NCBI RefSeq assembly: GCF_054482525.1 | Contig: NZ_JBTHVG010000003.1 | Length of the DNA stretch: 64,000 bases | Reading direction: 5' to 3' (one strand) | Source: a plasmid | Shown here: one piece after another, positions 27,001 through 33,000 of the stretch | How the letters are laid out: every line of letters begins with the position of its first letter | Numbering within the stretch: the first letter of the stretch is position 1 | Made by a program: the position numbers

Positions 27001-30000
27001 TGTATAAGAGTCGCCCTGGAACGAGATCGACTGGCTTTGCTTAATGAAGAGCGTAGTTGATGTTCATCAACCCCATCAGCGATAAACTGACCGATTTTTG
27101 TTTCAAGCCGCTGCATTGCCTCGTAAAGCTTGGCATCCGCATTATTTTTAAGAAACCTCAGTATATAATCAGCAATAATTTGGACGGGAGTGAACTTATA
27201 CATTATGTATCCTTAAGACGTTGTGTTAAATGATTCAAAAAAATTTATAACCAGACGTAAATTATTATACATAAGTAAGCACTTTAGCTAACAAGCTGGA
27301 GGAGTGAATTTCGGTTAGCAACTATATTTTAGAAGCTGATTGCTGAATAGACAAAGCCCGGCTTACCGGGCATTCATTTAATTAGATGCTAGAAATCTGA
27401 CCCGTCGTCTGACTTTTATTCCAGGCAGAGTTAGGAACTAATAATGATGGCCTGGTCAGTTTGAGGAAGCCGGTTTCCTCTGATAAATGCAGGGTGGTTT
27501 AAACGAGAAGAAGAAATGGTCATCGCCAGAAATGTCTCTTCACGCGAACGCAGAAATTCCCCCCATGAATAGGTTTCCCATACGTCGTGAGAAAGGTCGG
27601 ATTCCTTTATGTACCGGGATTGCATTGTTGGCTCAAAATCGACAGGGGCTAAACTGTCATAGGATGGATGAACACGGTACCCCAATCCCTCCTCCGTCTG
27701 ATGGTATGCATGTGCCAAAAGGACATCGTGGGAGACCAGGTCATAGTCGTTGTCCTGAACGAGCGTTTTTACGGTATGACTAATTTCCCCAAAGCCGTCT
27801 ATTTCCCAGAGCGTTATCATTGTGAACTCAGCTAAAGTTCGTGGGCTCTTTACCAGAAAGCCATTTAATGCTCGTCGCCCCTTCAGCATGCCAACGTGGT
27901 AGGTCTTGTTGGGATAGGGTTTCATTGCCACCAGCGAATCAGCTTTAAGCTCAAGTGACAATTCAGGGACAGACACGGACATGAGAGTACACTTGTTTTT
28001 CATATGGTGAAGAATACGTGGCACAAGATGCAGATACATCATTTTCTCCTTTTATGGATATAACTGGCAGATCCTCAGCAGCATCAAAATAGTTAATAGA
28101 CTTTTTTAATTGGTTAACCACTGTTGATTGACTTGTTTTATGTCTCTGAGAAATTATTCGTTTTGTTTCTGTTCGTTATACTGCTCAAACCAGAAGACGA
28201 CCGGTTTTACTACAATATGAAGCAAACCAAAACGTTCTGCGGTACGGAAATTCACGCTATATGCGCGAGCCCGTTCAACCTGTTTGGTAATTTCATTTCT
28301 CATTCCTTCAACACTAAAAGCTCCTTTAAAAAGGTTGCAGGGAGCGCATGATGGAAATAAGTTTTCTATTGCATGCAGTTCAGGGTGCATAACCTTACCC
28401 GTACTTCGGGCAACATGAGTTACGCCGCTGCCGACCGGGGCTCTCACCAGTTCAAAGTCGCGTCGAACAGGCTCAACATGATCGGCATGCCACCCTTTTT
28501 CAGGAAGCTTGCAACCACAATAGGCACAACGCCCCCCAAATTTCATTCGCAGCTCAGCTCGCTGTATTTTAGAGATCTTATTTTTAGGTTTTGAGAACCT
28601 ACCATCAGGTGATTCCGCTTTGGATAACTTTGCTGAGGGCTCAGGTAACTCAACTAAATTCCCGTTGATATTTATCACCTTGACCATATCATTTTCCGCC
28701 TTTACTAATCTCACGGGCACAGGAGCTGGCTTAAGTAACCGCTGAAGTTAACAGCCACTGACTGCCTCTACCCAGACCTTCTGTTTATACTCAATAGGCC
28801 ACCCCTCTTTATCTGCCCGGATGACGCAATCATTTACCGTGGTGCGTGACCGGATACGAACATCAAGCGGAAGCGAATCGTTATCCACACGAGCCTGTGC
28901 CTCATTTAAAATGCGTAAAAACATCTCTTTGGTCATTCAGATACCCCCTCAACTTTGCGAATTTTGATCAGATGAGGGCGATTCAGTTTACAAAGTTGTT
29001 CTGTCGCTTCATCAATCGAATTGAACCGATGAGCCTCTTCGATATTTAAAGTCCAGTATTTCGCTTTCCCTTCTCCCAGATCGGACTCAAAATAATTTCG
29101 CTTTACATCCATTTTTTTAGGCCTGCCATTTATCTTGACGACATTATGTCTGTCATCAAAAAGAAATTCGTCCCCCTCAAAAGTGATTAATACAAATGGC
29201 CCCTCAGGCTTGGAAGTCCGGGGACTTCCCATTTTCAAAGTCATACTTCAGCCTCTCGATAGAACTCATGAAACCTCAAATTAAAATGGACTCACACCAC
29301 ACTGATTCAGTATTCCTCCTGAACCCCATTAGGCTCTGTTGTGATTTCATATTTAATACCGCCAGGTGCTCCCACAGCGTCCGCGACCGACTCACACAGC
29401 AGCGAGAGATCGTTGAGGGTCATTGGGTGTTCAATGTCCAGCGTGAAGAGTTTCCCGGCTTGCTTGGCGGCTGTCTTGTCAGCATGTTCAGCATTAAAAA
29501 GGTATACGGTGTGTTTTTCCTGAGCGGGGGTATTTTGATTTTGCATTGATGATCCTTTTGTTTAGTTCCCCGATTCCGGGGGTGAGTGAATTAATTTAAA
29601 TTTATATTTGTCTGGTTTAATTAGAACGTTTCCAGGCTATGCGTAAACAGGTAATGCAAAGGCTGTATCAACAGGATTAAAGTTACTTTTCTGGATGCAG
29701 CAACGCTTGGACATGATGTCCACATTACATCACGATCAAAGCTAAGTTTTTTTTGTATAACCCCTTCATTTTCGTGTGTTTCGCGTTTCAGACGCTTATA
29801 CGACCTGCCTGACCATCCTCATCAGAAGGCGGTTTAACAGTCCTTTCGCTGTCGGGCGATTGCTATCGACATAGTAAAAACCTGTTTTGGTCGTACCGTG
29901 AGCACTGCTCAGCACCCTCAGTTCCCAGATAACGTCACGGATAACGCCGCCATTTTCTGGCTTAAGGCATTCAGATAAATGGCGCATGAAACGAGCTCTT

Positions 30001-33000
30001 ACGGCACGGTAATAGCGGAACTCCTCTGGCTGGTTAGTATTTTCTTTCACCCGGAGTCGCTGGTTACACAGAGTTAGAACTGCATCCATCATTCCCGCCT
30101 TCAGCTTCGCCTGGATCGCACCTTGTTGCTGTTCCCTCTCACCTTCGAGTAACGTTAAGATTCTTTCTCCGAGTGCCGTCTTGTTGTGTACGTGCAACTG
30201 TACACAGGCAGCTACGCATGCCCAGAATCTGAACTTTTTTATCTGTCCACGCAATTTCCGGGCTACAACCTGACGGTATGCAGTATCGCTGAGTATTTTA
30301 AAACGCCGACTGGCAACCAGCTCTGGAAGCGACACTCTTTCGCCTATCCCCAGGCGGGAAAAGGTTTGTCCCCGTTGTGCGAGACGATGATAGACAGCGC
30401 CCTTCCCTTTTGAAATTCGGACCGCGCCATAACGAAGAAGATACTGAGCAGCAGTCGTTGGAGTAAACTCACCGTCAGCGATGCTCTGGCGTAACCCGTC
30501 GTATTCATGCCAGATAATCCAGGACGCCGTATCTTCTTCAACAGTCAGCTCATCCTCTTCCTCGAATGCCACGACGACAGAACTGCTCTCTCCGGTCTTT
30601 AGGCTACGTGAAGCCCTGGGGTCAGCCTGCCCGTCAAAATAGGTCATCAGCGGCAACGTATCAGTCAGTCCATCATAAGCTGTACCGAACCGGCCTCCGG
30701 GCAGTTTCATCCAGAGTGGAGCTGGCATTGGTGTACGGGCCACAGGCAGCATGTCAGGCTCATCCTCAAGAAGGTCCAGATCGGCCTCTTCCCAGACTCT
30801 GCGATAGATCTCAATTGCCCGAAACGGGCGAGGGTTGAAACAGTGCAACGACCAGAGGAAATCAACGTGGATCACGTTTGCTTCATGTACAAGCCGAAAT
30901 TGTGGCTCAGCCATACGACGGTTATAAGCCGTATCGTCCACCTCGCCGGAAAGTAGCTTTCTGCGATGCTTTGCCGCACGTCTGGCTTCAACATAATCAA
31001 GGCTGCAACAGACATGAAAAAGACGTTCAGTCAGGGACGAAGAAAAGATATTGGGTTGAAGACGCACATACCCGCCTTCGAACACTTTACGACCGATATA
31101 ATCCCGCAGGCTCCAGTCGTACTGGATCTTAGAAAGAAATCGCTGAAGACGACTTAGGCCTGCCTGATAACCATATTTCTCAGGGTCAGTGCGAAGGAGC
31201 GTTTCCATTGAATGGTCAACCCCTACGGCTGTGCAAAGCGAGCACCCATATCTAGCCCCACAAGCTGAGGTTCGCGTGGGTTTCTCCGGCGACCAGATAC
31301 ACTCTCCGGTGGCGTCTTTATAAAGCGTTGCCAGGCTGAAGTTATCCGGCATAAAGCTTGGTAAAGGGAAGCGGGATTCGGAACCACAGGCCATTAGAAA
31401 AGACCAGATGTCCTGAGTGCGCCACTCCTTTACTGGATAGAGTTCACCACCGTGCTCAGTCAGGGTTACTTTCCTCGCCTGCCCTCCCATTTTGAGGATA
31501 TTTCCGGCCCTTCGGGCACTTTCATCATCCCTGGAGCCCAGCATCAGGCATACCCTGCTTCGTACGGATGCCGGGGCGTTTTTTAGATAACGAGCTTTGG
31601 CCTTGCGCAGGGGGGCGATTTTGTAGTCGGTTGAGCACTGACGGGTTGAAGAATTAGTCCAGGTCGGAAGTCCACGTCCAGTCAGAATGCGGCCTACCCA
31701 GCTCTGCGTAAGAGACGGTTGGGCGACAAGGACTGTGACCGGTAGCTGGTGTTCAGCAATGAACATTCTAAGCTGGTTGAGAACCTGTGAAGCCTGATAG
31801 TGCATCTCAGGGTTTTCGATCAGCGTATCGGACATCTGAATGAAATGATGTTCGCTGATATTTGTGCCGTTACGTACTGCCCTGATCAATGCCATCAGAA
31901 ATAGGTGAAGAAGAGAATGGGAGTCTTTACCGCCACTGTATCCCACGCACATCGTCCATCCGTCCGTAATAGCCTGATAAATAGCAGATGTGGCTGACGT
32001 GACCAGAGAAGAAAGACTCACAGTCTCCTTTTCATCGGTATAGTTCAGATCGGCATCGGTTGTCAGGGTCTCCCAAACATCAGCCCATTTATCATGTTTC
32101 AAAATGGCAGCATTAGCCGCCTCAGGAAAAATAACTTCTGAGGGTAATTCAAGGAATGAGTCACTTTTTTCAATAAACATATATTTTCCTGAACCACGGC
32201 ATATGCTGCATCACTGATATTTTTATTAGAACTTTAAAATAACTACAGCGCAACCATTTAGCGAAATTATATTAAATCAAAATCACGCAAATTTAATTCT
32301 TAAATAGATTTAAAATAAAAACCCATTGTAATTTAATCTCCCAGCACAGCTATTAGATATAGGTTGGTGGTGTAATAAAAGCCGTGACATTTGTTTTCAA
32401 CTCAGACAGCGGAATTGAAGGAGTGTTAAGAGTCATGTCATCACCACAATGGCGTGGTAGAGCAGAAAGCTGAAATGAATCTTTCATCACCCTAATAACC
32501 GGGCATTCCGTACGTGCTGATGGCATTACTTCCCGCAGCATCGCTTCCTGCCTTGTGCTATCGCTATGCTTATATTCATCCTGGTCTGTTATTTCTTGAA
32601 TTTCATCTTCACCACAAAATGACCAGTTAGCGTCATAGAAGTAAAACTCAGTTAACTGAAGATCGTTTTTTTTCACGTATGTCGCCAATTTGCGGATACG
32701 CTGTTCAAGCATTGTATCTATCCGTAAGGAAACACTTTGCGGAACATCACTTGCAAAGTCATTGATGCAAACAACGGTAGATACTATGAATTTATTGGTC
32801 ATGGCAGGCTCCAGGCCACCGGGGGAACCGGTGGCTACGGTTATCAGGCAGGCTTATGCGCCGCAAAGGGTGTCAAGGGAAGGAAGAAGCTTGCTCAGCT
32901 TGTCGTAATCGAGCGGAGACAGTTCTGTAACGAGTTCGACCGAAAGACTGGTGTTGTCTTCTTCACTCAGAATATAGATTCCGTCTTCTGGCTCTTTTCC

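Follow-up and report, generated by a model that had tools for sequence, protein, structure and literature searches.

A solitary DndC-type PP-loop gene of conjugative resistance plasmids as a candidate sulfur-modification enzyme for DNA

We found that a backbone gene of IncHI2 plasmids encodes a 794-aa protein in which a DndC-type PP-loop/Fe–S domain precedes an apparently unrelated C-terminal half, and that the gene stands alone in the 64-kb window (the whole stretch of plasmid DNA analyzed). The preliminary description had read it as such a solitary gene from the sequence alone, and both profile matches and searches of the window bore this out. Tentatively, we suggest that the protein may be an orphan modifier, a self-contained ATP- and Fe–S-dependent sulfur-modification enzyme for DNA, with DNA the most likely substrate judging from its nearest family.

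The ORF occupies 29796..32180 on the minus strand and is complete from ATG start to stop, matching exactly the coordinates and length first proposed. Its product is identical to WP_000469466.1, and copies 100% identical to the window gene are carried by pSTM6-275 and many other IncHI2 plasmids. The sole name in public records is 'PAPS reductase family protein' or 'phosphoadenosine phosphosulfate reductase family protein'. The parts of the protein and the neighboring genes discussed below are listed in Table 1. The full-length structure model is compact and confident (pLDDT 90, pTM 0.80), with residues 1–23 predicted to be disordered (pLDDT below 50).

Table 1. Protein parts and neighboring genes, in positions of the 64-kb window
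Feature	Position	Strand	Basis
Residues 1–59, acidic N-terminal extension, poorly conserved	32004..32180	-	Gap fraction 0.36, pI 4.1
Residues 52–353, DndC-type PP-loop ATP-pyrophosphatase domain, PAPS-reductase/FAD-synthase-like fold	31122..32027	-	
PP-loop SGGKDS, residues 82–87, predicted ATP alpha/beta-phosphate site	31920..31937	-	Translation, DndC alignment
Cys182 in R-x-C motif, candidate Fe–S or persulfide cysteine	31635..31637	-	Aligns with DndC Cys146 (RWC)
Cysteine cluster C294, C307, C313, C316 (GEC...CGARYGCSLC)	31233..31301	-	Aligns with DndC C262, C273, C280, C283
Residues 354–625, conserved family-specific module	30306..31121	-	No known homologue
Residues 626–794, variable, strongly basic all-helical tail	29799..30305	-	Predicted secondary structure, conservation; pI 10.4
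ParB-like gene, partition type	13551-14735	-	HTH_ParB, phrog_1033
N6/N4 DNA methyltransferase, firm assignment	35364-36614	-	Profile matches
SAM-methyltransferase-like ORF, weaker assignment	36783-37403	-	Profile matches

DndC, a PP-loop/[4Fe–4S] ATP pyrophosphatase, introduces sulfur into the backbone of DNA. A DndC/PAPS-reductase-like domain had been proposed for the first ~390 residues of the plasmid protein; profile, BLASTP, and hhalign matches upheld the domain but confined it to residues ~52–353. The Pfam PAPS_reduct profile (PF01507) matched above its gathering score (E 1.3e-5), which together with a Rossmann-like PP-loop fold places the protein in the PP-loop ATP pyrophosphatase superfamily. 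DndC models were matched in both NCBIfam (TIGR03183, E 6.4e-34) and PADLOC (E 4e-38), BLASTP against the DndC of a dndBCDE operon aligned residues 62–331 at 30% identity (E 3e-19), and hhalign of the plasmid family against DndC returned a probability of 99.9% (E 3.4e-37), with 28–30% identity to DndC across about 290 residues. By these comparisons the likeness to DndC and PAPS reductases is far above chance, and DndC is the closest family: in NCBIfam and PADLOC, BrxP scored 23 bits and SspD and CysH gave no match.

The PP-loop and the cysteine cluster singled out in the preliminary description were both found, the latter as C294...C307-G-A-R-Y-G-C313-S-L-C316-T. Among 90 homologues reaching down to 24% identity, SGGKDS and C182 are each at least 90% conserved and the four clustered cysteines are invariant, and all five DndC cysteines thus have counterparts here (Table 1). 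The shared signature comprises SGGKDS, R-x-C, and GEC...CG-x-R-[FY]-GC-x-x-CT; the chemistry is probably also that of DndC, an ATP pyrophosphatase with Fe–S/persulfide sulfur transfer. Loop 304–308, within the cysteine cluster, is the sole internal segment of low confidence in the structure model, a result to be expected of a cofactor site modeled in the absence of the cofactor. The dN/dS over the PP-loop domain is 0.04, and this value and the conservation of the core argue for a working enzyme over a decoy or relic.

The likeness ends with the core, and we rejected a DndC orthologue: the protein scored 117.6 bits against TIGR03183 (equivalog cutoff 290.4) and 129.9 bits against PRK06850, below the cutoff of 536. 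Only positions 7–289 of 447 in the curated DndC profile were matched, and the hhalign alignment ends at query residue 353 and DndC residue 317; a single PADLOC DndC model reaches residue 474, a match we regard as weak. The C-terminal region of DndC (~residues 318–543) was not found, and direct hhalign comparison of the C-terminal parts gave a probability of 1–2%. From these alignments, the DndC C-terminal region is replaced by an unrelated half of ~440 residues, made up of a family-specific module and a basic helical tail. This half had been described as ~400 residues with no recognizable motif; it indeed lacks a recognizable homologue, as well as a recognizable DNA-binding fold, but it is not uniform, with residues 354–~625 conserved and ~626–794 alone variable. 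The elements of the conserved module are a beta-hairpin, a long helix in which D395 and E398 are invariant, a small subdomain rich in beta structure, and a helix-strand-helix element that is basic and includes G585 and R603. The tail (conservation 0.32, gap fraction 0.44, 31 K+R versus 14 D+E) occurs in the plasmid versions of ~800 aa but not in those of ~580–670 aa. Family members range from 580 to 860 aa, and in full-length representatives the PP-loop domain always precedes the C-terminal module.

We detected the family on 2,192 of the 72,556 plasmids in PLSDB, 1,945 of them conjugative, and its conservation across plasmid groups extends to members only 24% identical. In IncHI2 and IncC plasmids, as in further conjugative resistance plasmids, the gene is a conserved, uncharacterized part of the backbone. 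Comparison with copies 97–98% identical gave dN/dS values of 0.10–0.13, by which intact copies are under purifying selection. Among 991 IncHI2-type records, 660 reach 80% coverage, and about a third are without an intact N-terminal domain (among them an Enterobacter lineage); an in-frame variant that has lost the catalytic core is carried by 37 contigs. Because such truncated copies and IS-interrupted copies exist, the gene is dispensable.

The absence of dnd, dpt, and ssp genes nearby, proposed at the outset, was confirmed by tblastn and Pfam searches of the window. Homologues of DndB, DndD, and DndE were missing from the 64 kb by tblastn. Pfam searches of 27 of the window's larger ORFs found no P-loop NTPase other than TraD, hence no partner NTPase, and neither SspB/C nor BrxC/Z/L partners were found. 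At eight homologue loci, the Pfam matches tabulated for the called genes likewise included no DndD, DndE, SspB/C, or BrxC family member, and there is no helicase or nuclease pair on either side of the PP-loop gene. When the window was compared with five other loci by ORF-by-ORF BLASTP, no neighbor was conserved across the six locus types, and the only shared one was a DUF3085 gene, in IncC. The oriT lies upstream of mobH, outside the 64-kb window. Two same-strand methyltransferase genes had been noted within 5 kb, and these do lie 3–5 kb upstream in the direction of transcription, part of a co-directional accessory array with at least four orphan methyltransferase-like genes around the PP-loop gene. 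Like the gene studied here, orphan plasmid DNA methyltransferases are solitary modifiers without a cognate nuclease, and the proposed role, pre-emptive marking of mobile DNA, would be the same; unlike it, they have a different fold and a SAM-dependent chemistry, as opposed to the predicted ATP- and Fe–S-dependent one.

If the protein is a self-contained modifier, it would spend ATP on adenylating a phosphate of the nucleic acid, or perhaps a position on a base, and then substitute sulfur at the adenylated position, with its own C-terminal module rather than partner proteins providing substrate binding and targeting. The resulting mark might help the plasmid to evade host restriction and phosphorothioate-sensing defenses or to manipulate them. 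Canonical DndC acts together with the scanning pair DndD (an ABC-ATPase) and DndE, an arrangement not found here; the plasmid gene is solitary, and the sole Dnd-type neighbor seen, a genuine DndB/DGQHR homologue in one subfamily, gives it a link to Dnd biology. To our knowledge, none of the phosphorothioate systems Dnd, Ssp, and BREX type 4 works without a P-loop NTPase partner, which counts against a solitary enzyme. SspD and BrxP, the writers of the latter two, share the PAPS-reductase-type PP-loop domain, which in BrxP is fused to a large extra module, but the plasmid protein has no DUF4007 and, as noted, matches neither closely. Also against a solitary writer, phosphorothioate was not detectable in gut isolates whose PAPS-reductase gene stood alone (PMC12914056). 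The dispensability of the gene and the lack of a recognizable DNA-binding fold in the C-terminal half likewise weigh against the modifier reading. A precedent for a single-gene synthase is provided by TdpC (An et al., Nat Chem Biol 2025): as summarized in PMC12914056, tdpC alone is sufficient for phosphorothioate synthesis, which proceeds via an adenylated DNA intermediate. We liken TdpC to the enzyme proposed here by this described mode of action as a self-contained writer, not by sequence or structure, and no chain of that name was among the PDB search matches; it belongs to an extremophile three-gene defense cluster with TdpA/B restriction partners, whereas the plasmid gene is without such neighbors. 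Phage PAPS reductases have also been proposed as anti-defense modifiers (PMC13551039).

A different substrate would turn the same core into an RNA enzyme, which would thiolate RNA such as tRNA, or make a related base modification, by adenylating a base carbonyl and swapping in sulfur, as in the chemistry of TtcA, TtuA, and NcsA. Such an enzyme would reprogram host or plasmid RNA rather than mark DNA, and the absent DNA-scanning partner fits it, as does a basic helical tail that may bind RNA as well as DNA. We nonetheless consider it unlikely, since the similarity to DndC (E 1e-34 to 1e-38) vastly exceeds that to any tRNA thiolase, the five-cysteine pattern is DndC-specific, and the context is rich in DNA modification, with orphan DNA methyltransferases near and a DndB-like neighbor in one subfamily. 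Similarly improbable, in our view, is an anti-defense protein that writes no mark itself and interferes with host phosphorothioate systems by plugging into resident DndD/DndE or Ssp, titrating IscS/DndA sulfur, or subverting the use of phosphorothioates to tell self from non-self, which would let the plasmid escape DndFGH- or SspE-type restriction. In favor of this reading, the gene travels on mobile elements that have to get into dnd+ Enterobacteriaceae; against it, dnd is generally absent from most of the plasmids' hosts. The persistence of the core-less in-frame variant agrees with interference, but strict conservation of the catalytic residues and the low dN/dS of the core favor catalysis. 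Moreover, an unrelated module stands in place of the DndC region outside the core and, assuming that this region contacts DndD/E, one would not expect the protein to dock into host Dnd complexes. From the literature, many DndDE cores are without their own DndC and have no housekeeping substitute (PMC10853773), and a review-style statement holds that a phage PAPS reductase helps to evade Dnd (PMC13551039); both would suit an anti-defense role.

The protein could instead act together with a ParB-superfamily protein, the two forming a two-component module like IbrA/IbrB or DndB/DndC, and might regulate gene expression through local DNA modification. IbrA, a PAPS-reductase plus DUF3440 protein paired with the ParB-like IbrB, resembles the plasmid protein in its PP-loop domain and its location on mobile DNA. 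The ParB-like gene pointed out in the preliminary description does exist ~15 kb away, but the suggested link is weak: IS elements and other genes lie between the two, and the ParB-like gene is not shared by the other locus types compared, with tblastn against 27 loci giving one weak match outside the window (locus L022, ~4 kb upstream). In one small plasmid subfamily of Citrobacter, Salmonella, and Enterobacter, a DGQHR/DndB-like gene of the ParB superfamily lies two genes upstream, an arrangement that is retained in relatives with as little as 76% nucleotide identity. This partner theme is real but a local echo, as most contexts examined have no ParB or DndB neighbor within 8–10 kb, and DUF3440, which defines IbrA, was absent from all 36 members tested, where PAPS_reduct alone was found (E up to 0.1). 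We therefore regard a two-component module as quite improbable. Far less probable still is an ordinary PAPS/APS reductase of sulfate assimilation, despite the database name, or a decaying non-functional passenger, despite the truncated and IS-disrupted copies. A CysH-type metabolic enzyme was rejected, with neither a CysH-model match nor a sulfate-assimilation context found and no CysH or CysD equivalog among the NCBIfam matches. Identity to PAPS reductases is only 15–17%, at the level of fold, the protein has three times the length of the matched PAPS/APS reductase chains (222–227 residues) and has a conserved extra module, and the DndC-specific cysteines are present; a passenger is at odds with the purifying selection and the breadth of conservation described above. 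The preliminary description had held that assignment to an unrelated metabolic PAPS reductase by profile searches would speak against a modifying enzyme, and that objection falls away because the protein is not one.

The preferred reading of an orphan DNA modifier has a bolder form, which we consider somewhat doubtful: a previously unrecognized, self-sufficient, single-polypeptide enzyme for nucleic-acid sulfur modification, in which a novel C-terminal module would replace the scanning machinery of DndD/DndE (or SspB/C, BrxC). If this is true, IncHI2 and IncC resistance plasmids would carry an unnoticed phosphorothioate or new thio-type epigenetic mark, one that would shield the plasmids from host defenses or be imposed on the host genome.

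The 794-aa reading frame, the SGGKDS PP-loop and the cysteine cluster were all recovered in the translated window, so the coordinates and motifs given in the preliminary description are correct. The window is IncHI2 backbone with 100% identity to pSTM6-275 and pHSHLJ1-MCR1 (typed IncHI2A, MOBH, MPF_F); it starts inside mobH, continues through traD into a long array of small, mostly co-directional genes of unknown function, and excludes oriT. The product of the DndC-like gene is WP_000469466.1, and its sole name in all public sources examined is "phosphoadenosine phosphosulfate reductase family protein," a metabolic name that is misleading. 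We found no paper in the literature tying the DndC-like gene of IncHI2 or IncC plasmids to a function. At nucleotide identities of at least 95%, the gene matched 991 PLSDB plasmid records, and it was present in 248 of 5,426 complete E. coli genomes, nearly always on a plasmid. GC content at 30001–32000, within the gene, was 0.52 compared with 0.42–0.44 in the flanking backbone, which suggests that the gene was acquired from a different source than its neighbors. A promoter and terminator scan around it returned fewer sites than were found in shuffles.

Coordinates of features in the window and at three homologue loci
Feature	Coordinates (nt)	Strand	Remark
NERD nuclease-related gene	7892–8623	+	closes Tra1 block
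Orphan ParB-like protein, 394 aa (HTH_ParB, phrog_1033)	13551–14735	−	in array downstream of Tra1
DUF6012 protein	27431–28042	−	just downstream of DndC-like gene
Small HNH nuclease (weakly PtuB/retron-HNH-like)	28154–28720	−	just downstream of DndC-like gene
DndC-like gene, 794 aa (ORF list)	29796–32180	−	ATG start
SGGKDS PP-loop			residues 82–87 of DndC-like protein
C182, additional conserved cysteine			inside R-Q-C motif of DndC-like protein
Cysteine cluster C294...C307-GARYG-C313-SL-C316	31233–31301		in DndC-like gene
Motif R-x-x-[MV]-P-x-P-x-W-[LM]	~30708–30740		residues 481–491 of DndC-like protein
Mrr_N+N6_N4_Mtase fusion	35364–36614	−	methyltransferase-like
Small SAM-MTase-like ORF	36783–37403	−	methyltransferase-like
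N6_Mtase/MTS ORF	45351–46175	+	methyltransferase-like
DUF4942+MTS protein	62502–63923	−	methyltransferase-like
DUF4165 + Ig-like Big_3_2/Big_3_3 protein	41618–44035	−	one of three paralogues, 805–818 aa
DUF4165 + Ig-like Big_3_2/Big_3_3 protein	47629–50049	+	one of three paralogues, 805–818 aa
DUF4165 + Ig-like Big_3_2/Big_3_3 protein	55931–58387	−	one of three paralogues, 805–818 aa
L003, Citrobacter freundii plasmid contig	8443–12010		DGQHR/DndB gene + 90-aa ORF + 669-aa DndC-like gene
L027, metagenomic mobile element	6022–10007		
L028, Enterobacter hormaechei IncHI2 lineage (NZ_CP043855.1)	1–4323		

DndC, a PP-loop ATP pyrophosphatase, carries a [4Fe-4S] center and a cysteine dyad that takes sulfur from DndA or IscS (PMC10853773). 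For the N-terminal domain, every family scan favored DndC over a metabolic enzyme. Matches were obtained to the NCBIfam models DndC (TIGR03183, E 6.4e-34) and PRK06850 (E 1.2e-37), to the PADLOC DndC models (E 4e-38) and to PADLOC BrxP (23 bits), with Pfam PAPS_reduct barely over its threshold (25.8 bits vs 22.5). Profile searches, whose assignment of the protein to an unrelated metabolic PAPS reductase would, by the preliminary description, have refuted its reading, favored DndC and gave no match to CysH or SspD (NCBIfam and PADLOC scans). Compared with a genuine DndC from a Salmonella dndBCDE operon, residues 62–331 were 30% identical (E 3e-19), and the alignment took in the R-x-C motif and the PP-loop as well as the GEC...CG-x-R-[FY]-GC-x-x-CT cluster. 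A profile-profile comparison of a 90-member family alignment with a DndC alignment gave a probability of 99.9% (E 3.4e-37) and paired residues 52–353 with DndC residues 23–317 of 543. Across the 90 members, with identity down to 24%, C294, C307, C313 and C316 were invariant and the PP-loop residues and C182 were at least 90% conserved; dN/dS against copies 97–98% identical was 0.10–0.13 over the full gene, with a value of 0.04 in the N-terminal domain. Because of this motif conservation and low dN/dS, we consider the predicted catalytic core to be intact and under selection.

The protein is not a DndC orthologue. It missed the equivalog cutoffs widely (117.6 bits vs 290.4 for TIGR03183 and 129.9 vs 536 for PRK06850), and both profiles were matched over their first two thirds only. 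No DndC match was found past residue 353 using hhalign, and direct comparison of residues 354–794 or 354–630 with DndC residues 310–543 gave a probability of just 1–2%. In known systems, the DndD-DndE pair forms the DNA-scanning core, with DndC missing from many DndDE cores (PMC10853773), and a P-loop NTPase is required by the Dnd, Ssp and BREX type 4 writers (PMC12914056). Searches of the 64-kb window using tblastn with DndB, DndD and DndE queries gave no match, and neither Pfam scans of 27 of its larger ORFs nor the matching plasmid's RefSeq annotation revealed a P-loop NTPase besides the coupling protein TraD.

The C-terminal half, described initially as having no recognizable motif, still had none after structural and profile searches. 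PHROG coverage was absent and PADLOC and Pfam were likewise empty, while PDB sequence searches, whether started from the one protein or from a profile of 90 sequences, returned generic PP-loop enzymes only and left this half unmatched. Among 36 family members scanned with Pfam, PAPS_reduct was the sole recurrent family, the other matches being scattered, marginal and limited to one or two members each. The sole C-terminal likeness between the family and DndC was a statistically non-significant one, a short motif (see table) in which P486 is almost invariant across the family and which corresponds to DndC ~350–359 (RKHVPGPYWL). Past the DndC-like part, R359, D395, E398, F428, W443, A455 and R603 were invariant and G585 nearly so in the 90-member alignment, with variability confined to residues ~626–794, an all-helical and strongly basic tail (pI 10.4). 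When residues 401–794 were used to query 1.84 billion cluster representatives exhaustively with phmmer, 132 proteins were found, many of them short and potentially fragments. In the full-length proteins (570–880 aa), the matching ~220–240 residues always lay behind an N-terminal part of 340–490 residues, and the module therefore appears to be an obligate fusion partner of the DndC-like PP-loop domain.

Using tblastn with the C-terminal half, we detected the family on 2,192 of 72,556 PLSDB plasmid records (~3%), 1,945 of them predicted to be conjugative, in Escherichia, Salmonella, Klebsiella, Enterobacter, Citrobacter, Providencia, Vibrio, Aeromonas, Burkholderia and other genera. Plasmid-borne members include an 817-aa homologue (47% identity), also present as an integrated island in Salmonella, whose setting resembles an IncC backbone as read from its genes (C5 methylase, primase) rather than by typing. 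Distant members (25–32% identity) were found in environmental genomes within small co-directional gene arrays, neighbored by ParA, HU, primase, Rad52-like or relaxase/helicase genes. A scan of IMG/VR returned no family member, and among INPHARED phages tblastn gave N-terminal-domain matches only, plus one mislabelled IncC island.

A locus search with a narrower family alignment yielded 12 loci, most of them close relatives. When the window was compared ORF by ORF with five other loci (six locus types, BLASTP), only the gene itself was shared, along with a DUF3085 gene in common with IncC. The DndC-like gene moves as a single-gene module. A conserved partner gene was ruled out by this comparison, by DndB-like and ParB-like tblastn across the collected loci and by Pfam neighbor tables. 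The HNH, DUF6012 and NERD genes had no homologue at the five other family loci by direct ORF comparison. The window encodes four or more methyltransferase-like proteins, none with an obvious restriction partner; the neighboring methyltransferase genes and the HNH gene were rejected as cognate partners of the DndC-like gene, since other plasmid families do not conserve them together with it. A role like that of the type IV-B CRISPR-associated CysH-like proteins (bioRxiv 10.1101/780106) was also rejected, there being no type IV-B context at the window. The DUF4165/Big_3 paralogues probably represent surface proteins encoded by the IncHI2 backbone. In the metagenomic element L027, the genes directly upstream of the family member are a DUF1643 gene and a second, shorter PAPS_reduct gene (405 aa).

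Intact copies of the gene are under purifying selection, yet the gene is dispensable. Coverage of the gene reached at least 80% in 660 of the 991 near-identical plasmid matches, and IS insertions interrupt it in several plasmids, with ISVsa5 and IS1203 in some IncHI2 plasmids (matches H1, H2 and H26). In the E. hormaechei lineage L028, homology runs from codon ~311 onward, the first ~310 codons, which encode the catalytic domain, having been swapped for unrelated ORFs without a Pfam match; the leftover 470-aa C-terminal ORF is nearly identical to intact copies. Residues ~155–345 are deleted in frame in a 600-aa homologue, P0018 (70–74% identity, 37 contigs), removing half of the PP-loop domain and all clustered cysteines while retaining the N-terminus and the entire C-terminal half, and P0018 could be a catalytically dead variant with a retained function.

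Several other roles may be considered for the family. A 669-aa version has a DGQHR/DndB-domain gene two genes upstream in 18 Citrobacter, Salmonella and Enterobacter plasmids (Pfam DndB E 2.3e-46; 27% identity to genuine DndB), and this module is kept to 76% nucleotide identity without dndD or dndE, an arrangement that would suit a ParB/DGQHR-dependent, IbrAB-like module. DUF3440, a hallmark of IbrA, was absent from all 36 family members scanned, and we regard such a module as quite unlikely. The window's ParB-like gene has no adjoining ParA and resembles the orphan ParB-like genes of plasmid establishment regions. The observation behind the preliminary description was real and its cautious reading, that the protein could be a solitary DNA-modifying enzyme, possibly protecting incoming plasmid DNA, or else a regulator, was largely right, the ParB connection being weak for this plasmid. 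A metabolic enzyme, as the database name would have it, or a relic, as the interrupted copies might imply, is very improbable for a protein with DndC-directed profile matches and purifying selection on intact copies.

Phage Aca-regulated PAPS reductases have been proposed to be anti-defence modifiers (PMC13551039), and the most diverged genes of a near-identical pQBR plasmid pair are those with PAPS-reductase domains (PMC4989453). JSS1_004, considered as a phage PAPS reductase evading Dnd, is actually a kinase. Interference with, or hijack of, host phosphorothioate (PT) systems would accommodate a catalytically dead P0018, and with the catalytic core of other members apparently intact we consider it unlikely. 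Thiolation of RNA, which would likewise use an intact PP-loop and cysteine sites, is similarly improbable for a domain aligning with DndC. Isolates with a lone PAPS-reductase gene had no PT (PMC12914056); in the tdpABC system, tdpC alone is enough for PT synthesis, as summarized in PMC12914056, citing An et al. 2025.

The gene is solitary and plasmid- or ICE-borne, and its product has a predicted DndC-type catalytic domain, with ATP and cysteine sites intact, fused to a conserved module with no recognized fold relative and to a basic tail. By DndC-like chemistry, such an enzyme would activate a nucleic acid, most probably DNA, in an ATP-dependent step and then substitute sulfur from a host persulfide, with its own C-terminal module in place of scanning partners. 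We thus suggest, tentatively and with somewhat less than even confidence, that it may be a self-contained sulfur modifier of nucleic acid, most probably DNA, an orphan among the orphan methyltransferases of the backbone. It represents a known kind of enzyme in a new architecture and context.

IncHI2 and IncC plasmids are principal carriers of mcr-1 and of genes for carbapenemases and multidrug resistance, and the DndC-like family is widespread on clinically important plasmids and uncharacterized. If the family does place a partner-free sulfur mark on DNA, it would amount to an epigenetic writer of a new, compact kind and would give plasmids a novel means of countering restriction and PT-sensing defences, and may be a confounder, or a tool, for PT mapping.
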